Positions 1,061-58,083 of a stretch of 64,000 bases of DNA are shown piece after piece (position 1 is the first letter of the stretch; each line of letters begins with the position of its first letter). Where the stretch lies: positions 12,860 to 76,859 of IMG/VR virus record IMGVR_UViG_3300037067_017580. One strand, given 5' to 3'. The notes beneath the pieces were generated by a model. That model made no database searches and was not told the origin of the DNA. It worked only from the letters and a program-made list of their open reading frames with translations. The translations under genes were made by a program, and so were the position numbers. This DNA is from a virus. Its lineage: Duplodnaviria; Caudoviricetes.

Positions 1061-1370
1061 ACAAAAATATTCTTTATATGTAGAAAATGTTTTACAAGAG
1101 ATTCTTTGCGATTTTAATAATAATTTATCTCCATATTTTAAAAATATAAAACAAAGAACAGAGACAGAATTTAAAAAACACGAACATCTTTTAGAGGTAA
1201 ACAGAAAATTCCTTAAACAGTGTCCTCTCCCATTAAATATCCTTAATAAAAAAGGATGGAAAAGTTTTAGATATAACAAATTAGACCAAGAAACACTAAA
1301 CGAAATATTAAAAAGAATAAAGAAAAGTAAAGAAAATAATAACATATTTGAAGATTTTTTAGGAGACTAA
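1053..1370 (+). CDS. Hypothetical protein
   Basis: Tiles between neighbours; ATG 1053 overlaps previous stop. Confidence 0.6.
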   Translation: MDEQKYSLYVENVLQEILCDFNNNLSPYFKNIKQRTETEFKKHEHLLEVNRKFLKQCPLPLNILNKKGWKSFRYNKLDQETLNEILKRIKKSKENNNIFEDFLGD

Positions 1371-2489
1371 ATGTATATTCACCCGGCGCGGCTCTACGAT
1401 TATCAAACAATTTACGATAATTTACAGCTTGAAATCGCAAATAAAAACGTCTCTGTCTCAAAAATGGGGGATTTAGAGCTATATCACTACACAAATAAAT
1501 GTACATACGACCATGCGTGGAATGTCTGGACTAAAATGGCGCGGGGCTTAATTTTAGATGTTGTAGAAAAAAGGGTTGTAGCAACTCCATTTGAGAAGTT
1601 TTTTAATTATGGAGAACTAGGGAATTTCGATTTACCGAATGAACCATTCTCAGCGTTTGAGAAACTTGATGGGTCGATGATTATATGTTTTTGGTATAAA
1701 GATCGTTGGATTTTAACCACTAAAGGTTCTTTTTATTCAGAACAAGGTAAATGGGCAACTGAAAAATTCAAAGAATATGATGAAGAAGCCCTTGTTAAAG
1801 GGACAACATATATTTTTGAAGCCATATATAAAGCAAACCAAATTGTTGTTTCATATAATTATGAGGGGCTGGTTATTCTTTCATGCTTTAGCGAAAATGG
1901 GACAGAAACTGGGTATAACCATCTTCCGGCGTTGTCTCATATTATAGAATGTAAAGATGCTATTTCTTATTCTTTTAATAATATAGAAGAGATAATAAAC
2001 GCCGCAAAAATCCTTGATAAAAACAACGAAGGATTTGTCGTCCGTTTTGAAAACGGTTATCGCATTAAAATAAAAGGTGAGGAATATAAGCGCATACATA
2101 AAATTGTGTCAAATATTACTCCAATAGCGATATGGGAAGCAATGTTGGCCAAAGATAACCTATTAGAAATTCGCAAACAAATTCCAGAAGAGTTTTATAA
2201 AGATTTTGATAAAATTCGTGATTTATTGTCAGAAAAAATGCAAGATTTGTTAATGGAAATCGGAATATGGGGGCTAAAAACAAAAGATTTGTCAAATAAA
2301 GAACTTGGGCTGGACGAATCTGTGCCGAAAGACATCAAGGGATTTATTTTCGCCGCTAGAAACAACAAAAGTATTATTACTGATAAAAAACAAAGAGAAT
2401 CATTTTTTCGCAAATTTAGACCAGATGGGAATATTCTAGAAGGTTATTCCGCAAGTACACATCTTTTAGGGTTGAAGGATGAAATATGA
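1371..2489 (+). CDS. RNA ligase, T4 Rnl1-like
   Basis: ARGLILD, FEKFFNYGE, motif I EKLDGS, EGFVV, RIKIKGEEY; AGGAG RBS. Confidence 0.9.
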   Translation: MYIHPARLYDYQTIYDNLQLEIANKNVSVSKMGDLELYHYTNKCTYDHAWNVWTKMARGLILDVVEKRVVATPFEKFFNYGELGNFDLPNEPFSAFEKLDGSMIICFWYKDRWILTTKGSFYSEQGKWATEKFKEYDEEALVKGTTYIFEAIYKANQIVVSYNYEGLVILSCFSENGTETGYNHLPALSHIIECKDAISYSFNNIEEIINAAKILDKNNEGFVVRFENGYRIKIKGEEYKRIHKIVSNITPIAIWEAMLAKDNLLEIRKQIPEEFYKDFDKIRDLLSEKMQDLLMEIGIWGLKTKDLSNKELGLDESVPKDIKGFIFAARNNKSIITDKKQRESFFRKFRPDGNILEGYSASTHLLGLKDEI

Positions 2490-3460
2490 AGCTTGAAAAC
2501 ATTGGATTTTATACACTATCAGACGACAGGGCGAATTCTTCCTCAATCTTTTCGCCCTTGCAAAGATGCGAACTAATCTTGGGCGGCAGATGTAATTTTA
2601 AATGTCCCTATTGCCGTGGGCTTAGACCTGACTTTTCTAAAGATATGACAGAAGAAGAGGCTCTTTCTGTCCTTGAAATATGGTGTCAAAATAGACTAAA
2701 AAATGTACGGTTTTCTGGTGGCGAGCCAACCATCTACAAATATTTAGGTAATCTAGTTTCGTTTTGTAAAGGAAATCAAGTAGAAAGAATCGCAATTTCA
2801 ACCAATGGAAGCGCAGATATCTCGTTATATGAAGATTTATTTAACAGAGGGGTAAACGACTTTTCTATCTCTTTAGATTCTGGCTGTTGCTCTATTGGCG
2901 ATAAAATGGCCGGAGGGGTTAGTGGGGCTTGGGAAAGAGTAATTGAAACAATTAAATATCTTAGCAAAAGAACATATGTTACAGTGGGCATGGTTTTTAC
3001 AGAAGAAAATATCAACCAGTGTTTGGAGTATGTTTTATTCGCTGATTCTCTTGGTGTTTCTGATATTAGAGTAATTCCTTCTGCTCAGTACAATAAAGCT
3101 CTTTCTATTTTAACCAAACTGCCAGAAGAAATTTTAAACAAGCATAAAATTCTAAAATATAGAATTAACAACATAAACAGCGGAAAACACGTTAGAGGGT
3201 TACAAAAGAACGACTGTAATCGGTGTTGGCTTGGCCTTGACGATATGGTTTGTGTCGGAGGATATCATTTTCCGTGCATTATTCACATGAGGGAAGGCGG
3301 CGATCCTATTGGGAAAATTGGTCAAGATATTAGAACACAGAGAGAAAGCTGGGTTAAGAACCATAATTGTCAAACTGATCCAATTTGTATTAAAAACTGT
3401 TTAGATGTTTGCCGGGATTATAATAATAAATATGAAGAATTACACGATAAAACATCTTGA
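2486..3460 (+). CDS. Radical SAM protein with Cys-rich C-terminal extension
   Basis: CNFKCPYC, FSGGEPT, ISTNG; C-terminal Cys cluster; ATGA overlap with ligase. Confidence 0.88.
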   Translation: MKLENIGFYTLSDDRANSSSIFSPLQRCELILGGRCNFKCPYCRGLRPDFSKDMTEEEALSVLEIWCQNRLKNVRFSGGEPTIYKYLGNLVSFCKGNQVERIAISTNGSADISLYEDLFNRGVNDFSISLDSGCCSIGDKMAGGVSGAWERVIETIKYLSKRTYVTVGMVFTEENINQCLEYVLFADSLGVSDIRVIPSAQYNKALSILTKLPEEILNKHKILKYRINNINSGKHVRGLQKNDCNRCWLGLDDMVCVGGYHFPCIIHMREGGDPIGKIGQDIRTQRESWVKNHNCQTDPICIKNCLDVCRDYNNKYEELHDKTS

Positions 3461-3732: not shown

Positions 3733-3760
3733 TTGACATTACGAAATTTTATGATATAAT
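3733..3760 (+). promoter_or_regulatory. Sigma70 promoter TTGACA-N16-TATAAT with extended -10
   Basis: Perfect hexamers, TG at 3752-3753, intergenic position. Confidence 0.85.
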
Positions 3761-3764
3761 TAAA

Positions 3765-3876
3765 ACGATAAACTGAATGACGGTTGATGTTCTTCCTGTC
3801 TTAGCATACCGGAAGTCAGCGGTAAAAGTCCGCAAAAGATGGCAAATATAGACAGGTTTTTTGTCTTTTAAGGAGG
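3765..3876 (+). promoter_or_regulatory. Candidate structured 5' leader (riboswitch/attenuator-like)
   Basis: Competing helices: 3792-3796/3811-3815, 3795-3801/3850-3856, 3850-3854/3862-3866 plus U-run; hairpin 3819-3833; ends at AAGGAGG. Confidence 0.4.
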
Positions 3877-3882
3877 TTAAAA

Positions 3883-4092
3883 ATGGAATCAGGTTATTTT
3901 TGGGCTTTGGTTTGCAAAAAAGATAATTTAATCGGTACAAACTATTTACCTTTTGGAACAATGTTTATAAATACTGTTAATGTTTTCACAACTAGAAAAG
4001 ATGCAAGAAAAGCTAAATCAGCCTTAGTTAATCCAAAAGAAGCGAAAGTTACAAAAATTTTTATAGGGGAACTAAAAGGTTTTTCATGCTAA
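3883..4092 (+). CDS. Hypothetical protein, paralog of 45358..45546
   Basis: AAGGAGG RBS; shared Y-x-W-A-x-V and NVF-xx-RKDAR-x-AK motifs. Confidence 0.7.
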   Translation: MESGYFWALVCKKDNLIGTNYLPFGTMFINTVNVFTTRKDARKAKSALVNPKEAKVTKIFIGELKGFSC

Positions 4093-9914: not shown

Positions 9915-10132
9915 ATCTTAACTATATTAATAGTCTTCCTCAGCCTTTTTTGGTTAGGTTTTTAGGAGACAAAACAGAGTGGCCATTATATGATATTGAT
10001 GTAGAAACAGGCTTATTAAGAATTGATGTAATAGGAAAACTTCAAATTAAACATATTGGAGAAGTTTCTTTCTTTATAGACGACGATGGCAATCAGCACG
10101 ACAGCGATAGTTTTTATCTTATGCAGTGTTAA
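9902..10132 (+). CDS. Hypothetical phage protein
   Basis: Tiling ORF. Confidence 0.6.
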   Translation: MDKLDLNYINSLPQPFLVRFLGDKTEWPLYDIDVETGLLRIDVIGKLQIKHIGEVSFFIDDDGNQHDSDSFYLMQC

Positions 10133-10149
10133 GTTTTCTAAGGAGCAAA

Positions 10150-11085
10150 ATGTTTTATAATTTTATCGGAAACGACATAGCTAAACAAAGATTAGAGATA
10201 TCGGTAAAAGCTTCACAAAAAAACAATGAAAAACTTCCTAATTTTTTATTCAGCGGCAGCGCAGGTGTTGGCAAAACAAAAATGTTCCATAGTTTATGCG
10301 AAGAGACATTTTCAATTCCGGTTTATATAAACGCCAGTACCCTTGATAGCATAAGCGAATTAATGAACGATATAGAAAAAGCCGTTGGTCAATTTGCACT
10401 ATATAAAACAAGACGGTATATTATAATTGGAATTGACGAAGCCCACGCTCTAAAAAGAAAAGTTTGCGACTCTCTTTTAACCTTAATTAGTGAAAATAAA
10501 ATAACTTATAAAAATGGCCGCTATCCGGTTACAACAAAAATTGTTAATAGAAATACTGGCAAAAACGATTTTCTTTCGTGGGTATTTATGACAAATCGCG
10601 CCGGAGAATTGCCGCTGGCTCTCAAATCACGACTAACTGAAGTTGACTTTATTAACTATCAAGAAGATGAAAAAACAATAATTGCGGCAAATATTCTTAA
10701 AAAAGCAGGGATTTTATCAAATAATGAATCAGTTAAAGAGATTGGCAAACGGTGTTGGTCGGCGCGAGAAGTAACTCAAACCACAGAAATGTTAATTTCC
10801 TATCTATCTTTGGACAACACAACAACCATAACACAAGAAATTATAGAAAAATTCTTTAAAATATATGGAATCGACCAAAATGGTCTTGGACAATCAGAAA
10901 AAATGTACTATAATATAGTAAGAGGAGCAAAAAGCCCAATTAGTCTACAGTCTATCGCGGCTATTATGGATATCGGGATTAAAGATGTATCAGACATTGA
11001 ACGTAAACTTATATCGTTAAATATGGTTACAGTAACTCCGCAGGGGAGAATTTGTACCGATCAGGAAAAGGAAATAGGAATTTAA
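10150..11085 (+). CDS. ruvB: RuvB-like AAA+ ATPase (Holliday junction helicase-like)
   Basis: Walker A GSAGVGKT, Walker B IDEAH, MTNR, LKSR, winged-helix tail ending TPQGR. Confidence 0.75.
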   Translation: MFYNFIGNDIAKQRLEISVKASQKNNEKLPNFLFSGSAGVGKTKMFHSLCEETFSIPVYINASTLDSISELMNDIEKAVGQFALYKTRRYIIIGIDEAHALKRKVCDSLLTLISENKITYKNGRYPVTTKIVNRNTGKNDFLSWVFMTNRAGELPLALKSRLTEVDFINYQEDEKTIIAANILKKAGILSNNESVKEIGKRCWSAREVTQTTEMLISYLSLDNTTTITQEIIEKFFKIYGIDQNGLGQSEKMYYNIVRGAKSPISLQSIAAIMDIGIKDVSDIERKLISLNMVTVTPQGRICTDQEKEIGI

Positions 11086-11087
11086 AA

Positions 11088-12125
11088 ATGAAAAATAAAA
11101 CAATTTTACTTACCGGGGCTTCTGGAATGCTCGGTTCATCCATAAAAGAAGAGCTTGCCAGCCGTGGCTATAAAAATGTTCTAACCCCGACTTCCAAAGA
11201 ACTTGATTTAATGTCACACTATCTCACATCTAAGTATGTTATACAAAATAATCCAGAAATTATTATACACTGTGCAGCAAAAGTGGGCGGGATCGTTAAT
11301 AATATTACCAACGCCGATGATTTTTATAATATAAATTTTACAATGCAAAACAATATAATTAAGGCTTCTTATGCGCAAAGAGTAAAAGAATTCTACTTTA
11401 TGTCTAGTTCGTGCTGTTACCCTGTGGATTGCTCCCAACCTATGAAAGAACAAGACATCTACGAAGGAGAACCAGAACCCACAAACGCTAAATACGCCAT
11501 AGCAAAGCGCAAAGGGATGATTCTACTTGAAGATTTGACAAAACTAAGCGAGATTATAAATTTTAAGGCTTTAAATATCTGTTTATGTAATCTTTTTGGC
11601 AAAGAAAAAGAATTTGACCCCGCGAAGTGCCACGTAATTCCAGCACTAATTAAAAAACTATATGACGCAAAAACAAATAATCTTCCAGGTTTAGATGTTT
11701 TAGGGACGGGAAACGCCGAAAGAGAGTTTTTATATGTTGAAGATGCCGCTAGAATTATTGTAGATATTATTGAAAAGAGGATTATAGATAAAGAAATATA
11801 CATAAATGTAGGGCGCGGGCAGGCAATTTCGATAAAACAATTAGTGTTTCTTCTCAAAGAAATTGTGGGATATCAGGGAGAAATAAATTTTACTGGTAAA
11901 ACCGAAGGAATTAAGCAAAAACTTCTTGACATTAGCCGACTATTATCGTATAATATAAAATTAGATAATGCAACGATGGATGAAAATATGTATATGAGCT
12001 ATTATCTTAAAAAAACATATGAAAACTTTTTAGTGAAGACAAAATTTTCCTTTCCTGGAATGAAAAAAGGAATAGTAAATATTATTGGAGCGCGTTCTGG
12101 TGTAGGGAAATCTTATTATCGGTAA
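11088..12125 (+). CDS. fcl: GDP-L-fucose synthase-like epimerase/reductase (Fcl/ColC family) with a foreign C-terminal tail
   Basis: GASGMLG, AAKVGGI, SSSCCYP, EPTN..YAIAK, HVIPALI, REFLYVED. Confidence 0.88.
   Translation: MKNKTILLTGASGMLGSSIKEELASRGYKNVLTPTSKELDLMSHYLTSKYVIQNNPEIIIHCAAKVGGIVNNITNADDFYNINFTMQNNIIKASYAQRVKEFYFMSSSCCYPVDCSQPMKEQDIYEGEPEPTNAKYAIAKRKGMILLEDLTKLSEIINFKALNICLCNLFGKEKEFDPAKCHVIPALIKKLYDAKTNNLPGLDVLGTGNAEREFLYVEDAARIIVDIIEKRIIDKEIYINVGRGQAISIKQLVFLLKEIVGYQGEINFTGKTEGIKQKLLDISRLLSYNIKLDNATMDENMYMSYYLKKTYENFLVKTKFSFPGMKKGIVNIIGARSGVGKSYYR
12069..12114 (+). repeat. 46-nt segment similar to the DnaB Walker A coding sequence (55309..55354, - strand)
   Basis: 39/46 identity by manual alignment. 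Confidence 0.85.
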
Positions 12126-12131
12126 AAAAAA

Positions 12132-12686
12132 ATGAAAACAAAAGCAAAATTAGAAATTTTAAGCGCGTTATTATCATTCCCAACTATAAGCCAAAAAGAT
12201 TGGGAAAGTGATATTTTTCATTCAGAAGTTAAAAAAGGGGATTTAGTTTCTATAAATTGTGCCAGCCCTTCAAAATGGTATTTATCATGGGTAATAGACA
12301 TCAATGATAATAATTGTTATCCTAAATATTTACTTGAAAGTATTGAAGACGGAGAATCTTGTTGGTGGGATAATATAGGGATAAATATATATGATAGAGA
12401 AAAAGTAAACAGAAATCCAAAATGGAAATGGGATGATAAACAATTTGGCTTTAACGAAAAGTGGAATAAGGTATGTTATAAAATAAACGATGCATATATT
12501 ATGCTGCCTGAGTTACCAATATTTAATCAAGATGGTTCAGTAATATTAAATGTTAGAATTAGATTTTATTTAAATAATTTTAATAATCCCCAAGTTTTTA
12601 AAAATTGGAAAAATCTATCTACAAAAGAAATAGACTTATATTATAAAGAAAGTTTAAAAAAATATGAATCTACAAAAGTTAGTTGA
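12132..12686 (+). CDS. Hypothetical protein
   Basis: Long Trp-rich tiling ORF. Confidence 0.6.
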   Translation: MKTKAKLEILSALLSFPTISQKDWESDIFHSEVKKGDLVSINCASPSKWYLSWVIDINDNNCYPKYLLESIEDGESCWWDNIGINIYDREKVNRNPKWKWDDKQFGFNEKWNKVCYKINDAYIMLPELPIFNQDGSVILNVRIRFYLNNFNNPQVFKNWKNLSTKEIDLYYKESLKKYESTKVS

Positions 12687-13548
12687 TAAAAAACTTATAT
12701 TTCCGCCTAATTGGCTCCCATCAAATGTCCATTATTTAGCCATAACTGGAAGCAAAGCATATGGTTGCCATCAAAATAATAAATCCGATGATGATATCGT
12801 AGGATGGTGTTTTCCTCGAAAAGAAACTGTTTTCCCTCATTTAAATGGATATATTCATGGATTTGGCAATCCTCCAGAAAGCTTTGAGGTTTGGCAACAG
12901 CACCATGTAAAAGACGACCAAAAACAATATGATTTCACCATATATAGTATTATTAAATTTGTTCAACTTTGTATGAAGAATAATGCAAATATTTTAGACG
13001 TTTTATTTGTGCCGCAACAATGTGTTATCCATTGCACCCAAACGGCACAAATACTTAGAGATAGAAGAAAAGAATTTTTACACAAAGGAGCATATTCTTC
13101 TTTTCGCGGATATTCGTTTTCACAAATGAATAAAATGGCAACAAAAAATCCAAAAGAAGGTTCTAATAGATATGAAGATATAAAAATAAACAAATGGGAC
13201 AGAAAGTATGGTTACCATCTAGTAAGACTTCTCTTAGAATGTGAACAAATATTAGCTACTGGCGACTTAGACCTTCAACGAGATAGTGAAACATATAAAG
13301 CTATTCGGCGGGGCGACTGGACTGAACAACAAGTAAGAGATTTCTTTGCTCAAAAAGAGAAATATCTTGAAGAACTTTATCAAAAAAGCACTCTTCCACA
13401 TCGGCCAAATGAAGACAAAATAAAAGAAATACTTCTACAGGTGTTAGAACAGCATTATGGAAGCTTAGAAAAAGCAATAACTTTGCCAGAAAAAGAAAGT
13501 ATTTATTTAAAACAAATTGGTGACGCAATAAGAAAACTTGGGTATTAA
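12664..13548 (+). CDS. Pol-beta superfamily nucleotidyltransferase (YcgL/RlaP-like)
   Basis: GSKAYG, SDDDIVG, NANILDVLF, YHLVRLL. Confidence 0.85.
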   Translation: MNLQKLVDKKLIFPPNWLPSNVHYLAITGSKAYGCHQNNKSDDDIVGWCFPRKETVFPHLNGYIHGFGNPPESFEVWQQHHVKDDQKQYDFTIYSIIKFVQLCMKNNANILDVLFVPQQCVIHCTQTAQILRDRRKEFLHKGAYSSFRGYSFSQMNKMATKNPKEGSNRYEDIKINKWDRKYGYHLVRLLLECEQILATGDLDLQRDSETYKAIRRGDWTEQQVRDFFAQKEKYLEELYQKSTLPHRPNEDKIKEILLQVLEQHYGSLEKAITLPEKESIYLKQIGDAIRKLGY

Positions 13549-13567
13549 CAATTATAGGAGAAAACAA

Positions 13568-13828
13568 ATGGATGATAGTCACGAATCAGATTATCAAAGC
13601 TACGCCGATTGGTACGATAATGGCCCCGGAAGTGAAAAAGCCATCAGGGAATCTAAAAAAAGTTCAGCCGAGTACCATAAAAATAATCCAACTTTTATTT
13701 TATCAAAAGATCAGCTTGATTATTACAAAAAAATAGAAAAAGAACACAAAAAACTTAAAAGAAAAATTAAAATTAACAGAAAACAGAGAAAAAATAAGAA
13801 AAACTATTTTAAATTAGGAACAAAATAA
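13568..13828 (+). CDS. Hypothetical protein with basic C-terminus
   Basis: AGGAG RBS at 13556. Confidence 0.55.
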   Translation: MDDSHESDYQSYADWYDNGPGSEKAIRESKKSSAEYHKNNPTFILSKDQLDYYKKIEKEHKKLKRKIKINRKQRKNKKNYFKLGTK

Positions 13829-13831
13829 CCT

Positions 13832-14092
13832 ATGATTTATAAAATATTATTATGGGCTAATAAAGAAAGATGTGATTTAGATGGATACCAACAACAAATA
13901 GAGGTACTTCTTGAGGAAAAACATATATATTCGTGGTATTCTGAAAAATTTGAAAATAATCCACCGGAAATAAATATTTTTTTTAATATTCCTGTAATGA
14001 AAAAAGAAGTTAGTGCTGCTTCTCCTCATCTAGCAGTAGTAAAATTTCTAAGATGGTATAGCAATGGATTATCAGAAAGTTATTTGGATTAA
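13832..14092 (+). CDS. Hypothetical protein
   Basis: Tiling ORF. Confidence 0.55.
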   Translation: MIYKILLWANKERCDLDGYQQQIEVLLEEKHIYSWYSEKFENNPPEINIFFNIPVMKKEVSAASPHLAVVKFLRWYSNGLSESYLD

Positions 14093-32067: not shown

Positions 32068-32242
32068 TATTTTGCACTTTCCTGAACAAGTTTTACAATT
32101 TTATAATATTTATAACTTATGTATCCGTTTTTCATCATACTTCTTGCCTCTTTTCTGGTGACAAAAATATGGGCAAAGTTACAGTGTATCCCTGAAATCT
32201 CTCCATTTTTTTTATAAATTATTGCCCACCAGTGTTTATTTT

Positions 32243-32974
32243 TCATTTTACCTCTTTTCCCTTAAGGTATTCTTTAATCTCTGTCTGCGACTTAATAATT
32301 TCTCTAGCTGATTCAAAATTTAACAAAGAAATATCGTCTACTGGCTCTTTTTTAATCGCAACTAGAACATCTTTTAGTGTTGTTTTGTTATCAGAGATAA
32401 ATTTTTCAATAATTCTTTTCTGTAGATCTGTGGTTGGTTGACTATTTGTAACAACCTCTTCCTCTTCTGAGTCCATGACTTCTTCTGCGGCAACGATATT
32501 AAGATTAAGAGCCTTACGATAAATTCTTGCTTCTGCGCGTGTTACAGCACTAGAAACACTATATTTACCGAAGTCCCATCCAGAATTATAATATGGGCGG
32601 CAATCTGCGGCGTCTGAAAATGTTCTACGTAAATCACCCTGTAAAAATGTAATAGTCATGGTAGCAATAGCTCCAGACATTTTCCCTTCTTCAAATATCG
32701 GGCTAGTTTCTATGTGTTGATCTATAATTGTGCCAATTTTGTCTTGAGCAACACGACGCAATCCATTAATTTTTACATATTCGACACCGTTTTTCGTTGC
32801 TTTTTCATTATCATAGAACAAACACAGATCAGAAGGAGCATCTTTTTGCTCTTCCATTGTTATCTCTTCAAATTTTACCCTTACTTCGTCATCAGACATT
32901 TTTGCAACGTCTTCTTGATTAGCCCCGTGGATTTCTGATAACTCTTTTCTCATCGTTGACGCCCTTTTAGCCAT
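32243..32974 (-). CDS. Possible Rad52/Sak-like single-strand annealing protein
   Basis: YVKINGLRRVA...FSDAADC...AVTRAEARIYRKAL pattern; has its own promoter. Confidence 0.4.
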   Translation of the reverse strand: MAKRASTMRKELSEIHGANQEDVAKMSDDEVRVKFEEITMEEQKDAPSDLCLFYDNEKATKNGVEYVKINGLRRVAQDKIGTIIDQHIETSPIFEEGKMSGAIATMTITFLQGDLRRTFSDAADCRPYYNSGWDFGKYSVSSAVTRAEARIYRKALNLNIVAAEEVMDSEEEEVVTNSQPTTDLQKRIIEKFISDNKTTLKDVLVAIKKEPVDDISLLNFESAREIIKSQTEIKEYLKGKEVK

Positions 32975-45357: not shown

Positions 45358-45546
45358 TTAACTAACCTTAACAATTTTTGCAATAATTTGATCTTCTGGA
45401 ACCAACTCTTTTTTAGCAATTCTTGCGTCTTTTCTTGACACAAAAACATTATACATTGATAATTCTTTTTTGCCATATAAAACATTTGACGTTGTAGGAT
45501 TTCCTTTTTCGTCAACAATCGCCCAAAGATAATCTTTTACTTGCAT
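45358..45546 (-). CDS. Hypothetical protein, paralog of 3883..4092
   Basis: YLWAIV...NVFVSRKDARIAKKELV. Confidence 0.65.
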   Translation of the reverse strand: MQVKDYLWAIVDEKGNPTTSNVLYGKKELSMYNVFVSRKDARIAKKELVPEDQIIAKIVKVS

Positions 45547-45559
45547 TTTCTTTTCTCCA

Positions 45560-45793
45560 TTAATTTAAAACCTTAAAATCTTCTTCTAACATCGTCTCCA
45601 ACCAATTATCAGCACACAAACGTTTAAAAAAATGTTTCTCGTCATCAAAATAAAACGTTTCTCTTAGTTGCCCATGAGTTAAACTAATTTTATTATCTGA
45701 TACAACCAGAGAAAATTTCCTAGATCTTAATGCTTTCCCTTTTCTGGCCTCTATACATGCTTCTAAAAATTTCATACAATTTGATACTCGCAA
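45560..45793 (-). CDS. Hypothetical protein
   Basis: Tiling ORF. Confidence 0.5.
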   Translation of the reverse strand: MRVSNCMKFLEACIEARKGKALRSRKFSLVVSDNKISLTHGQLRETFYFDDEKHFFKRLCADNWLETMLEEDFKVLN

Positions 45794-53041: not shown

Positions 53042-53395
53042 TTAATTGTTTTTCTTTATCAAGCCATCTTCGTTTTCAGATATCAAACTATTCTTAACAT
53101 CTTTGTATGTCGTTCTAACCCACCACATTCGAGGATAATTCCAGCTTTTTGAAACAAGGATTACTTCTTCTCCTGTTAGTTTTAAAATAGCTCTATCGTC
53201 TACTTTAAAATCATCTTTAATAACCACTATTTCTATTTTTTGATCAATCTCTACTTTAGATTCTTTCTTTAAAAAACTAGAAAGTAAAAATCCAATCAAA
53301 AAAACAAGTATAAAAATTAAAATTCTTAATCTATTGTTTCTTTTTTTGCTACTGGAAATAGTTATATTGTCTTGCGACTTCATTTGCTTCATCAT
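53042..53395 (-). CDS. Hypothetical membrane-anchored protein
   Basis: Hydrophobic ILIFILVFLIGFLL; start uncertain. Confidence 0.5.
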   Translation of the reverse strand: MMKQMKSQDNITISSSKKRNNRLRILIFILVFLIGFLLSSFLKKESKVEIDQKIEIVVIKDDFKVDDRAILKLTGEEVILVSKSWNYPRMWWVRTTYKDVKNSLISENEDGLIKKNN

Positions 53396-54440
53396 CGGTC
53401 ATTTCTCCTATGTCTTTTTTTCCATCAATTAAAACTGGTTTAACATTAAAATATCTTGACAACGACATAAATTCTGTTCTTTTTTCATTATTTATTTCAT
53501 TTTTTGTTAAATTATCATCTATAAATTTCTTTCCCGCCTTATCATTGTCTCCAAATAAGTATATCTGTCTTAGTCCGTCCAAACTCATTAGTGTCGAAAA
53601 ATAGTCTTTTGTGGCCGAACCTCCAAGCAGCGCAACTGCGTTAAAGACTCCTATTTGGTGCAACCTCATTAAATCTGGAATTCCCTCAACTAAAACAATG
53701 CTACCAATCTTCTCTACATTATACCTTATATTGTTCAAGTTGTAAAGAGCTTTTTGTGAAAATCCTTTATTTTTTTTCCATTTTATCCAAGTTGACCATC
53801 CTTCGTAGCACTTTTGCCCGTTTTCATGAAACATCTCACAGTTTGGGCATTTATCATAAATAACTCTTCCGGTAAATCCAATTATATCTCCGAGAATATC
53901 TCTTATTGGAAAGACAATCCTATTTGCCATTTCCTTTTTTTCAGCAAATCCACCCTGAAAATAATCTATCGTTTCTTCTGTAAAACCTCTTTTTAAAAAA
54001 TAATCGTGTTTTTTTAGTCTTAATAAATATTTTTCATTGTATACTATTTTCTTTGGAACTTCGTGTTTCTTGTTTTTATTTATAAAACTTAAAATAGACG
54101 CAGCTTCTTCATTCTTTTTTGGCAAATTATTTGGGTCTAGTTTAAATAAATCACATATCCAAGTAACAGAATCTTTAAAATTCTTATTTAAAACTCCACC
54201 AACTAAACCAAGAGGAGAAGATCCATGCTCCTTATCACAAGAACAACTCCAACATTTCCATCTTCCTATATTAGAATAATAAGAAAAACTAGAACGATTA
54301 TATCCATTATGAATGGGGCAACTTCCCCTATATTCATTTCCATTCTTACGAAAAACAAGCCCAAGCTCATTAAAAACAATTTCTATGTTAGTATTGCAAA
54401 CATCATTTAAAAACTGATAGTCTATTCTTACTTTTGGCAT
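53349..54440 (-). CDS. dnaG: DNA primase (CHC2 Zn finger plus TOPRIM)
   Basis: CPIH...WKCWSC, RIVFPIRD, GFTGR, LVEG..D, DNDKAG. Confidence 0.92.
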   Translation of the reverse strand: MPKVRIDYQFLNDVCNTNIEIVFNELGLVFRKNGNEYRGSCPIHNGYNRSSFSYYSNIGRWKCWSCSCDKEHGSSPLGLVGGVLNKNFKDSVTWICDLFKLDPNNLPKKNEEAASILSFINKNKKHEVPKKIVYNEKYLLRLKKHDYFLKRGFTEETIDYFQGGFAEKKEMANRIVFPIRDILGDIIGFTGRVIYDKCPNCEMFHENGQKCYEGWSTWIKWKKNKGFSQKALYNLNNIRYNVEKIGSIVLVEGIPDLMRLHQIGVFNAVALLGGSATKDYFSTLMSLDGLRQIYLFGDNDKAGKKFIDDNLTKNEINNEKRTEFMSLSRYFNVKPVLIDGKKDIGEMTDDEANEVARQYNYFQ

Positions 54441-54448
54441 TTTAAACT

Positions 54449-55984
54449 CTAAAATGGGCTAGTGTGTTCGCCAGTAGAAGCAGGAATATTATTAAGAGCA
54501 ATCTCTAGTCTATTTGTCATTTCTTTTTTTTCGGCAAATCCTACTTGAGAACAACTCATTGTTTTTTGTTCCGTAGCAGAAGTTTTTTCGTATCCATCTG
54601 AATACCTTGATAATCCCATATCTTCAAGCCTAGCAATCCTTTTATCGGCAAGAATTTTAATATACGTATCATCTGGAGTTACTGGGCCAAAACGAGATTT
54701 TGTTATAACTATTTTCATATTGGAATCGCTTTTTTGTTCTTCTCGATCAAGATTTTTAAGAATAGCAAAAGTAGAGGTCAACCATTCAATTCTATCTGAC
54801 TGTGAGGCCACTCCACCAATTTTTTCGATTCCATCACGATTTAGCTGCAAAGTTAAAAGCATCGGAACATTATAACGAACACAAAAATCATGCAAAGAAG
54901 ACATATAAAACCCAATAAGCTGGTACTCTTTAAGATTTTCAAGACCTTTTGTGTTCATCATTTTTAAATAATCATAAACAATAACACAATCTTTTACATT
55001 GCCGTTCTCGTCTTCTCCAACAACTTGACGAACCCATTTTTTCATTGCAATTAAAATTTCTTCAAATGTTTGACCGCCAACATATTTATGATATAGCTGA
55101 ATCTTTTTAAAATATGGCAAATCACCTAAAATCCTATCTTTTTTATTTTGGTCTTTTGAAAACTTACCAGTTTCAATATCATCAATCGTTACTCCTGTTC
55201 TCATTGCGGATAGTCTTCCCATCTGCTGGTCTTTAGAAAGCTCTGTGTCAATATACAAAACAGGAACCCCGTTACTGGCAACGTGATTGGCAATATTGAG
55301 AGCGATTAAAGATTTTCCTACGCCGGGACGCGCTCCAATAATGTTTACAGTTCCCCTGCGAAGACCTCTTCCGATATGAAAATCATAAGTTCTAAAACCT
55401 GTAGGAATCCCAAGATTTTCACAAGGATTACTTGATAAGAAATCTAAATATTCTTCATACGAAGATGCAAATGTGTCAAATTTTTCATTTGGATTAGATG
55501 CTTTTTCAATAACTCCATTACATTGTTTTGAAACTTCAACAAGAAAATCTTCTAAAGAAATATCGTTTCCAGAAAAATCTTCTATGTTTACTTTGGCATT
55601 TTCAATAGCCGCAATTACGTTTCTATAAATAGCTTTTTTCTTTACAGCAAGAACAAATTTATCAAGATTATCAAAATTGACATGCTTTTGTGATAAAACT
55701 TCAAGATAATTATTGTCATCGACAAGGGTAAATGTGCTTTTTTTATTCTTTTCTTTAAGTTGTAGCTTAATTAAGTCAGCGTCAATCTTTTTGTTAGGTT
55801 CTTTATCTAGCAACTCTTTAATAACAAAAAATATATCATTGTCTGTTTTATGAAAAAAATCACTTGGAATTAATCCTTTGTCATCACAAACAATAAGTGC
55901 TTCTTGTCCATATTCAAAAAGAGAACTTAAAACCATCCTCTCTGAAACAACATCAATATTGTCTGGAGAATCACCTTTTTCCAT
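54449..55984 (-). CDS. dnaB: Replicative DNA helicase with C-terminal tail
   Basis: GIPTGF, GARPGVGKS, IDTE, YDYLK, QLNR, KSRFG. Confidence 0.92.
   Translation of the reverse strand: MEKGDSPDNIDVVSERMVLSSLFEYGQEALIVCDDKGLIPSDFFHKTDNDIFFVIKELLDKEPNKKIDADLIKLQLKEKNKKSTFTLVDDNNYLEVLSQKHVNFDNLDKFVLAVKKKAIYRNVIAAIENAKVNIEDFSGNDISLEDFLVEVSKQCNGVIEKASNPNEKFDTFASSYEEYLDFLSSNPCENLGIPTGFRTYDFHIGRGLRRGTVNIIGARPGVGKSLIALNIANHVASNGVPVLYIDTELSKDQQMGRLSAMRTGVTIDDIETGKFSKDQNKKDRILGDLPYFKKIQLYHKYVGGQTFEEILIAMKKWVRQVVGEDENGNVKDCVIVYDYLKMMNTKGLENLKEYQLIGFYMSSLHDFCVRYNVPMLLTLQLNRDGIEKIGGVASQSDRIEWLTSTFAILKNLDREEQKSDSNMKIVITKSRFGPVTPDDTYIKILADKRIARLEDMGLSRYSDGYEKTSATEQKTMSCSQVGFAEKKEMTNRLEIALNNIPASTGEHTSPF
54510..54541 (-). 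repeat. 32-nt segment similar to primase coding sequence (53920..53951)
   Basis: 29/32 identity by manual alignment. Confidence 0.85.
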
Positions 55985-56633: not shown

Positions 56634-57029
56634 TTAAATATCTTTGGCCTCCTCTATAGAATCAACAATAATAAGCTCAATCCCATTCAGATCACACCAG
56701 TTCTTCTTAATTATATCACGGTTTTTTTGTCTGTCAAATCCTTTCTGATCTTTATGAAAAAACTTTGAAAATTCATAGTGCTGCCGACCATTAACCTCTA
56801 TCGCCAAAGATCGTTGTGGAATAAAAAAATCAATCTTTAGACCACCAGAACCGGGAACCGTCCACTCTTCAAGAATAGTGCAAAACTTATATTTATTTCG
56901 TAAAATTTGTCCAACATCGTATTGAATTCCGCTTTTGCAAAATTCTTTTGGCCTAACTGGAAAATCGGAAATAGATAACGAAACTGTTACGCTATTTCCC
57001 TCTATGTCAAGCATTTTTGGCATAAACAA
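56634..57029 (-). CDS. Vsr/DUF559-like endonuclease
   Basis: IDFFIP..SLAIEVNGRQH...QK.RD..K..WC..NGIEL. Confidence 0.8.
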   Translation of the reverse strand: MFMPKMLDIEGNSVTVSLSISDFPVRPKEFCKSGIQYDVGQILRNKYKFCTILEEWTVPGSGGLKIDFFIPQRSLAIEVNGRQHYEFSKFFHKDQKGFDRQKNRDIIKKNWCDLNGIELIIVDSIEEAKDI

Positions 57030-58083
57030 TTTCCTCTGCTTTTGTCTTAATGCTATTAAAGAATTCAGGATTTTCTCTCATCATGGCAATAACTGCTTTT
57101 TGTCCCTGAACCTTTTCTTCTCCAATAGTATACCATCCTGCGCCACCCTTAGTAATAAGTCCAAATTGATCTGCAAGATTAAATAAATCTGTCATGTAAT
57201 CAAATCCATGACCATAAAGCAAGGGAACAGTAACTTTAATCTTAGGCTTGCCCATAATCGTTGTTTCTACACAAAATGTAACATTGTGTCCAATTTGCTC
57301 TCCGTTATCGTCAGTTATTTCTCGTTTATCTCCATCTTCTTTCGCCCATGGAAACCTAAGCCGGATAATTGTATCTGCGGCATATTGAATATATGTTCCA
57401 CCTGGATTTACAATCTTTGGAGCGCCATGTCCACCAATATTAAGAGCCTGTTTCTCGTGATTAATAAAAAGAACAGTAGCATTATGAACGACAAGAAGCG
57501 GCGTTATCTTTTTAAGACAAGTTTGTAAATATCTTGCAGTTTCTGCGACTTGTGCATCTCCAATATCTCCGTCGTTTTCTTTGACTCCAAGCAATGCTCC
57601 AATAGAATCAAAAATATGAAAAGACTCAGGAAAATCTTGAATATTAGATTCTAAAATTTGCAAATAATCAACAGATGTAAGAATTTTTTCTTCGGAAGAT
57701 TTAATTAGATAAATATTATCTCTGGTAAGACCATCAATGCTATTTAAAAGACTATCGCTTAGTCTATTTTCTACCATATAATAAAAAACTTTTGTGTTCG
57801 GAAACTGATTTTTTGCAAATTGAGCAATCTGTAATGCACATGTAGTTTTGCCAAGTTTTGGAATAGCACTCAAATGACAAGTCTGCCCTCTCAGTAGTCC
57901 TCCACCAAGAGCATAATCCCAAGACGGAAGAGTGCGAATAATTCCTCTATCTTTGTCCTTGTAAGAAGAAAGAGGGATGCAAAAAGACCCTCCAAACTTT
58001 TTATGTCCGCTCTTGACAACCTTATTAAGAGTTTTATCTCCTTCTTCGACAACTTCTTCATCTTCTTTTTGTTTTTTAGCCAT
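57007..58083 (-). CDS. recA: RecA/UvsX-like recombinase
   Basis: DYALGGGL, KLGKTT, FDSIGAL, FINH, PGG, G.WY, QG. Confidence 0.9.
   Translation of the reverse strand: MAKKQKEDEEVVEEGDKTLNKVVKSGHKKFGGSFCIPLSSYKDKDRGIIRTLPSWDYALGGGLLRGQTCHLSAIPKLGKTTCALQIAQFAKNQFPNTKVFYYMVENRLSDSLLNSIDGLTRDNIYLIKSSEEKILTSVDYLQILESNIQDFPESFHIFDSIGALLGVKENDGDIGDAQVAETARYLQTCLKKITPLLVVHNATVLFINHEKQALNIGGHGAPKIVNPGGTYIQYAADTIIRLRFPWAKEDGDKREITDDNGEQIGHNVTFCVETTIMGKPKIKVTVPLLYGHGFDYMTDLFNLADQFGLITKGGAGWYTIGEEKVQGQKAVIAMMRENPEFFNSIKTKAEEIVYAKNA

Follow-up and report, generated by a model that had tools for sequence, protein, structure and literature searches.

An in-frame dnaB fragment at the end of a phage fcl gene, a strain-variable locus and probable recombination scar

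Introduction

Illegitimate recombination, plain or homology-facilitated, has been put forward as the source of small variable segments and dimorphic microdiversity loci in bacteria (Touzain et al., 2010; PMC2884548). Phage mosaicism has been traced to exchange with diverged relatives by homeologous or relaxed recombination (Martinsohn et al., 2008, PMC2327257; De Paepe et al., 2014, PMC3945230), while for T4 the abstract of one study describes UvsX-dependent minihomology end joining at homologies of 3-4 nt (Wu et al., 2021; PMC8262927). Here we describe a locus that touches on each of these systems, found in a 76,859-bp IMG/VR virus record with a G+C content of 31% and a CheckV completeness of ~45%, within a stretch of 64,000 nucleotides that is called the window below. 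An initial annotation of this stretch had reported that the product of its fcl gene ends in an in-frame copy of the Walker A motif of the resident DnaB helicase, and this is confirmed, with the protein running 27 residues past its normal end.

Results

The fcl gene and its surroundings

The closest cellular homologues of the phage Fcl are annotated GDP-L-fucose synthases sharing 37-44% identity and mostly 306-331 aa long, which align to only 82-92% of the 345 residues of the phage protein (Table 1). These homologues end a few residues past the last helix, with the phage protein continuing for the 27 further residues in the alignment. In an alignment of 72 sequences the invariant columns include G10/G13/G16, S107, C109, Y136, K140 and H182. 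The equivalent features of E. coli Fcl we take to be a Rossmann G-x-x-G-x-x-G motif, the Ser/Tyr/Lys set S107, Y136 and K140, and a Cys/His acid/base pair, C109 and H179. The core of the phage protein carries the residues expected of a GDP-L-fucose synthase (Fcl/GMER, extended SDR) and its best matches bear that name; its length and C-terminal end depart from those usual in the family, the 27 extra residues all being modelled at pLDDT <50. Judged by its sequence, the core is a member of the GDP-L-fucose synthase family to which the tail is foreign, and no Pfam or other family match was found for the tail. An AlphaFold model of Fcl (pTM 0.87) has pLDDT above 80 through residue 320 and values of 25-34, with no secondary structure, over residues 321-345. 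The core is thus predicted to be intact and the tail to be disordered, and in all likelihood the latter is a floppy, inert extension that has no separate activity.

The gene that follows fcl encodes a protein of 184 aa with no family match. A perfect sigma-70 consensus promoter lies within the 3′ part of fcl and would place the tail in the 5′ leader of the transcript of this downstream gene. Exact TTGACA-N16-18-TATAAT promoters occur 8 times in the window against 0.09 expected, all of them co-oriented with the local genes. Their starts are at 3733, 11926, 26182, 29415, 33059, 52560, 56737 and 59141, several of these being inside coding sequence. Elsewhere in the record there is a dispersed family of ~60-85 aa proteins with a conserved central motif (BLASTP E 1e-8 to 2e-4; Table 1).

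Table 1. Coordinates of the features discussed, given as positions in the window.
Feature	Position	Strand	Details
Small-protein family member (~60-85 aa)	upstream of window, ~-10972..-10775		BLASTP
Small-protein family member (~60-85 aa)	3826..4089	+	BLASTP
fcl (GDP-L-fucose synthase-like SDR)	11088..12125	+	345 aa including 27-residue tail; Pfam Epimerase E 4e-45
Perfect sigma-70 consensus promoter (TTGACA-17-TATAAT)	11926..11954	+	within 3′ part of fcl
Dimorphic segment	11970..12131	+	91 other letters in L003, with sister-lineage fcl end and no tail
Inserted stretch	12045..12131	+	87 nt, net +85 nt relative to L003; 29 codons, read in frame as Fcl tail
dnaB-like 46-mer (Walker A codons)	12069..12114	+	sense orientation, in frame with fcl
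Downstream gene (184 aa)	12132..12686	+	no family match; no SD-like motif; start 6 nt past fcl stop
Small-protein family member (~60-85 aa)	32070..32261	-	BLASTP
Small-protein family member (~60-85 aa)	45361..45564	-	BLASTP
DnaG-type primase (Zn ribbon, DNAG_N, Toprim)	53349..54440	-	no SD-like motif; start 8 nt past dnaB stop
Primase counterpart of second graft	53920..53977	-	N-terminal region of DnaG catalytic core, residues ~157-175
dnaB	54449..55984	-	511 aa; Pfam DnaB_C and DnaB; C-terminal tail ~25-35 residues longer than those of relatives
Second graft, in-frame primase-like fragment in dnaB tail	54510..54567	-	self-comparison
Resident dnaB Walker A codons, counterpart of 46-mer	55309..55354	-	ungapped match to 12069-12114
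Homing-endonuclease-like ORF, free-standing	56634..57029	-	131 aa; PHROG HNH/homing endonuclease families E 1.7e-17 to 6e-5; no Pfam match
UvsX/RecA-like recombinase	57007..58083	-	phage-encoded recombination machinery

The tail matches dnaB as DNA

The inserted stretch is flanked by the A-run with which the shared fcl sequence closes and by the start codon (ATG) of the downstream gene, and is made up of ~24 nt that could not be assigned, the 46-mer and ~17 nt ending in a new stop codon (12123-12125) and an A-run. The 46-mer is identical to the reverse complement of its dnaB counterpart at 39 of 46 positions with no gaps, and in a self-BLASTN of the 76.9-kb record at word size 7, the check that had been proposed with the initial annotation, this pair was the top non-self match (E 1.5e-6). 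The pair was recovered by a second genome search as well (E 1.7e-9), while an ORF-against-ORF BLASTP placed the Fcl tail and DnaB together at E 6e-5. The seven differences reported at the outset were confirmed in number, with third codon positions accounting for five of them and not for four as then stated.

As any two P-loops share residues, the similarity was set against a null in which the tail and DnaB peptides were back-translated with the codon usage of the phage itself. Bases matched at 38 of 45 positions against 32.2 +/- 2.3 expected from codon choice (P 0.0085), and 10 of the 13 shared residues were encoded by the identical codon against 5.0 expected (P 0.004), rare codons included. 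A control was provided by the DnaB gene of L007, which encodes the same 15-residue peptide as the resident DnaB and matches the resident dnaB at 34/45 positions and the tail at only 29/45. The similarity between tail and dnaB is one of true DNA homology rather than of a shared P-loop motif alone, given both the codon tests and this control. L007 is a contig of an Enterobacterales MAG with a DnaB of 431 aa (1210-2505, minus strand) in which the Walker A peptide is that of the phage and the codons differ; it was the single match in genome contigs to a degenerate DNA pattern for the Walker A peptide, which gave 0 matches in viral and metagenome contigs.

Beyond the 46-mer, homology in either the 5′ or the 3′ direction was not significant even when a possible 1-nt indel after 12114 was allowed for (P 0.1-0.8). 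What the tail holds is ~15-19 residues around Walker A, and the complete DnaB domain set, a RecA-type C-terminal domain with Walker A, Walker B and arginine finger and an N-terminal domain, both domains being present in the resident DnaB, is absent from it. Among 120 DnaB homologues, the closest to the tail peptide was the resident DnaB, with none above 48% identity, and a tblastn of the tail against phages gave only matches at E ~10, all in DnaB-like helicases and not significant. Self-BLASTN of the record found no further copy of the insert besides dnaB, nor did scans of viral, metagenome and genome contigs and of DnaB homologues find a donor dnaB with the exact sequence of the tail.

The junction is real and strain-variable

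The 90%-identity cluster of Fcl contains four members, of which the window protein and P0001, 99% identical and encoded on another contig of 7,264 bp, carry the tail, while P0122 and P0123 (326 aa) are without it. L003, the Logan contig that encodes P0123, stems from a landfill run and is 99.6% identical to the window over 10996-11969, after which it passes into a diverged, sister-type fcl end with no tail. In L003 the fcl stop overlaps the ATG of the 184-aa gene (ATGA), and the net surplus of the window over L003 at this junction is 85 bases. In run X1, from groundwater and possibly the source sample, a contig spans 11940-12371 with zero differences, while in run X2, from landfill and a different study, the contig over 11710-12238 is ungapped and has 17 substitutions. 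A contig from a further groundwater run, X4, covers 11903-12086. The tail is also unchanged in L005, from another JGI metagenome, and in L006, an ENA assembly, such that it is identical in all retrievable carriers (L005, L006 and the P0001 protein). The alternative state recurs in a landfill run, X3, where 11969 is joined to 12128 with 91 letters between and the tail is skipped.

That the tail is an assembly chimera has a negligible probability, since the case for it is nothing but the prior that attaches to metagenome contigs and the junction is bridged or carried by contigs of three further runs, by L005 and L006 and by the contig of P0001, a refutation at the level of contigs. The caution entered with the initial annotation, that the junction could be chimeric or the tail unique to this genome, is likewise dispelled by other assemblies and samples that carry the junction. 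On the contigs compared, the locus is dimorphic, with the tail as one of its alleles in a phage population that recombines, and the L003 alignment and the X3 joint also agree with the early suggestion that the tail is a recombination scar. Since L003 departs from the window only shortly after the consensus promoter, the variable segment is at once the 3′ end of fcl and the likely leader of the transcript of the next gene. Polarity, insertion here as opposed to deletion in the sister, is read from the lengths of outgroup Fcl proteins and the ectopic homology and not from a phage outgroup. BLASTN of 10000-14000 against GenBank phages gave no match, scans of viral and metagenome contigs for relatives of fcl or of the 184-aa gene returned nothing close (L004 being an unrelated 21% match), and a search for shorter Fcl fragments gave no candidates.

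Mosaic breakpoints between window-type and sister-type sequence are sharp, with identity falling from near 100% to ~85% at 11955-11969 in L003, directly downstream of the consensus promoter in fcl, and at ~13700 in L005. In the X1 groundwater sample a second fcl contig, at ~40% of the depth of the main strain, has 58 differences in 502 nt (11381-11882), depths from contig-only runs being given no weight in the argument. The presence of this second contig, 88% identical to the first, indicates that two lineages co-occur in the sample.

Divergence from dnaB and the origin of the fragment

The substitutions separating the tail from the resident dnaB are mostly synonymous, with five synonymous and two nonsynonymous changes giving a pS of 0.39 and a pN of 0.06 (Fisher P 0.015), a test that rests on only 7 differences. 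Between the window-type and sister-type lineages, 150 flanking coding bases are 84% identical with a pS of 0.49 and a pN of 0.09, and the divergence of tail from dnaB is essentially equal to that of the sister lineages in flanking genes. Orthologous dnaB DNA, diverged as far as the sister lineages are, is the simplest account of the fragment. This agrees with the earlier proposal of a captured helicase fragment that had diverged under coding constraint or had come from a related phage.

The reading that we favour, with a probability of roughly 60% for the whole explanation, is that ~85 nt were inserted at the junction of fcl and the next gene by illegitimate (microhomology-level) recombination, a joining mechanism that we infer. 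The insertion would have carried a short piece of dnaB ~15% diverged from the resident gene, the donor most likely being a co-infecting phage of the sister lineage, although it is equally possible that a self-copy came first and that the resident dnaB was then replaced by the sister allele. The piece would have landed in sense orientation and in frame, so that fcl is read through it and terminates anew 6 nt short of the following ATG.

Another origin would be a copy of the resident dnaB made within the genome, by template switching or as filler DNA in break repair, that then decayed neutrally. The resident DnaB is indeed the closest known match to the tail, an A-run provides microhomology at both junctions, and at five of the seven differing sites the tail has T where dnaB has C, the direction of AT-biased decay. 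Neutral decay should however touch all codon positions, which is at odds with the contrast between pS and pN, and the imbalance persists when G/C sites alone are counted, a comparison that allows for AT-biased decay, with 3/4 such sites changed at third positions as against 2/18 elsewhere. Neutral decay of a self-copy is disfavoured by this concentration of G/C-site changes at third positions. It would further require 15% change along one branch, more than the ~8% per branch by which the lineages have diverged, and in the X3 relative no change is seen in the dnaB segment. An intragenomic copy followed by decay is thus unlikely. Most likely, as far as the substitutions tell, the fragment is not a decayed self-copy of the resident dnaB and stems either from the dnaB of a sister phage or from a resident gene that was swapped later.

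A second graft in the tail of dnaB

Self-comparison of the record independently revealed a second in-frame graft, a primase-like fragment within the long C-terminal tail of dnaB, on which Pfam gave no match. It matches the primase gene at 45/58 nt and at 10/11 residues, lying on the same strand 590 nt away. Here too the divergence is mostly synonymous, with a pS of 0.53-0.75 and a pN of 0.04-0.09 (P 0.0004-0.014), the tests resting on only ~9-14 differences. The all-against-all search of the ORFs gave no third graft. This primase fragment may be a second product of the same capture process. DnaB itself ends (54449-54460, minus strand) in an aromatic residue after a proline, and in several distant relatives an acidic tail is closed by P-F-E or P-W. 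Such ends are reminiscent of the C-terminal aromatic contacts made by replisome proteins of T7.

With two grafts at hand, each could be the last remnant of a complete gene, the Fcl tail of a second (xenologous) dnaB that once separated fcl from the 184-aa gene before nearly all of it was deleted, and the dnaB tail likewise of an older, displaced primase. Such a history would account for the sense orientation, for divergence of the coding type and for only the most conserved motif being recognisable, and in both tails weak in-frame similarity runs on upstream of the motif. That extension is not significant, there is no other dnaB-like remnant nearby, and no relative was found with a gene at the fcl/184-aa site, where the tail-less relatives show a clean ATGA overlap. 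As each of the two loci would also have needed an acquisition and no fewer than two deletions, the remnant of a lost gene is a rather doubtful origin for either tail.

If orientation and frame were random, two grafts both in sense and in frame would be expected by chance only ~1/36 of the time, a figure that counts against accident unless the coupling argument given here, or some other bias, holds. An SD-like motif precedes 33 of 54 genes and is lacking in the genes downstream of both tail-bearing genes, and the stops of fcl and dnaB lie only 6-8 nt before the start of the next gene. By translational coupling, an insertion at such a junction would survive only where it leaves the upstream frame open until shortly before the SD-less gene begins. 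Both grafts may thus be in frame with no function as peptides, as a scrap of coding sequence read in sense and in frame keeps the frame open.

Genes that might have taken part in such events are found close to dnaB. One encodes a UvsX/RecA-like recombinase. Between it and dnaB, ~650 nt upstream of the latter, sits a free-standing ORF that matches the C-terminal nuclease region of PHROG homing/HNH endonuclease families. Any part of either gene in the capture of the tail is conjectural.

Possible functions of the tail

The initial annotation had offered two functional readings of the tail, as a peptide mimic or decoy and as a source of antisense-like RNA. In the first, the grafts would be selected, translated features, conserved replisome peptides that act as decoys or mimics, whether the target is a protease, a sensor of the host or a partner in the replisome. 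Such a role would suit a genome in which two conserved replisome motifs have been grafted in sense and in frame, pN being far lower than pS in each, and a tail allele that turns up across several samples and habitats. The low pN is however fully explained by an orthologous donor, and relatives both near-identical and of the sister type do without the tail. It is predicted to be disordered, it matches no family and its ~15 P-loop residues cannot form a fold that needs ~250, such that a decoy is very improbable and the analysis yielded no evidence for one.

At the RNA level, the insert might act as a hairpin in the leader of the 184-aa gene or by pairing with dnaB transcripts. Lying downstream of a consensus promoter, it can be folded into a long imperfect hairpin (-22.4 kcal/mol, z -1.9) with arms at 12027-12051 and 12104-12128. 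The z-scores are marginal, with 6 to 11 of 200 shuffles folding equally well, the tail-less leader scores alike, and the insert has no Rfam match and no terminator. The antisense proposal fails on orientation, as the tail, on the plus strand, reads in the sense of the dnaB mRNA; the two transcripts are alike here rather than complementary and cannot pair. The chance that the insert serves as RNA is accordingly slim in the extreme.

A bolder reading would have the lineage repeatedly fixing in-frame scraps of the replisome genes of sister phages at translationally coupled junctions, whether as the captured ends of homing-endonuclease cuts in conserved motifs of co-infecting relatives or as decoy peptides against host sensors, and this we consider improbable. 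The tail does not reveal a new function or system. It is probably a neutral or harmless recombination scar, of traceable origin.

Comparison with known systems

In pairing a short, diverged repeat at a gene's 3′ end with another copy elsewhere, the locus recalls the VR/TR pairs of diversity-generating retroelements (DGRs). DGRs are recognised by adenine-specific differences between TR and VR and by a nearby reverse transcriptase. Here the differences do not fall at adenines (5/7 are C/T), the other copy is the P-loop of an essential gene, and no match to a reverse transcriptase (RVT_1) was found in the 76.9-kb record, ~45% complete as it is. Both the substitution pattern and the missing reverse transcriptase match led to a DGR being rejected. 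A MITE or IS-type element, which would bring terminal inverted repeats, a target duplication and more copies in the genome, is no better a fit, with arms only 72% complementary, no terminal repeats of note and no other copy except that in dnaB. Nor does the locus resemble the footprint of an intein or of homing, for which splicing blocks or an endonuclease ORF inside the insert would be expected, the insert being 29 codons long with no family match and the endonuclease-like ORF lying elsewhere (Table 1).

The setting is that of phage mosaicism (PMC2327257, PMC3945230), with co-occurring lineages ~15% diverged and sharp breakpoints in L003 at 11969 and in L005 at ~13700. Mosaicism of that kind swaps allelic segments, whereas here a piece of 46-85 nt has come to lie at a non-allelic site. 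T4 end joining (PMC8262927) offers a likeness in mechanism, as this phage also encodes a UvsX-like recombinase and its junctions show only A-run microhomology. The T4 events are deletions at a cut site, the abstract of that study mentions no ectopic or foreign capture, and no break has been documented at fcl.

The locus preserves a clean and datable trace of DNA capture at a non-allelic site between phage lineages that co-occur, in which the scrap carries the synonymous-site divergence of its donor lineage such that its origin can be read from ~45 bases. The finding of two open-frame scraps, both before genes with no ribosome-binding site of their own, suggests a testable filter on the illegitimate insertions that survive in compact phage genomes.

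Of the dimorphic segments described in bacteria (PMC2884548) the fcl locus has the main traits, namely alternative short segments between conserved flanks, no mobility genes, short repeats or microhomology at the borders and a position at the end of a gene, as expected of a dimorphic scar of illegitimate recombination. It differs from them in that the extra segment can be traced to an orthologue of dnaB and is read in frame, and in that it is carried by a large phage of lytic type rather than by a bacterial chromosome.
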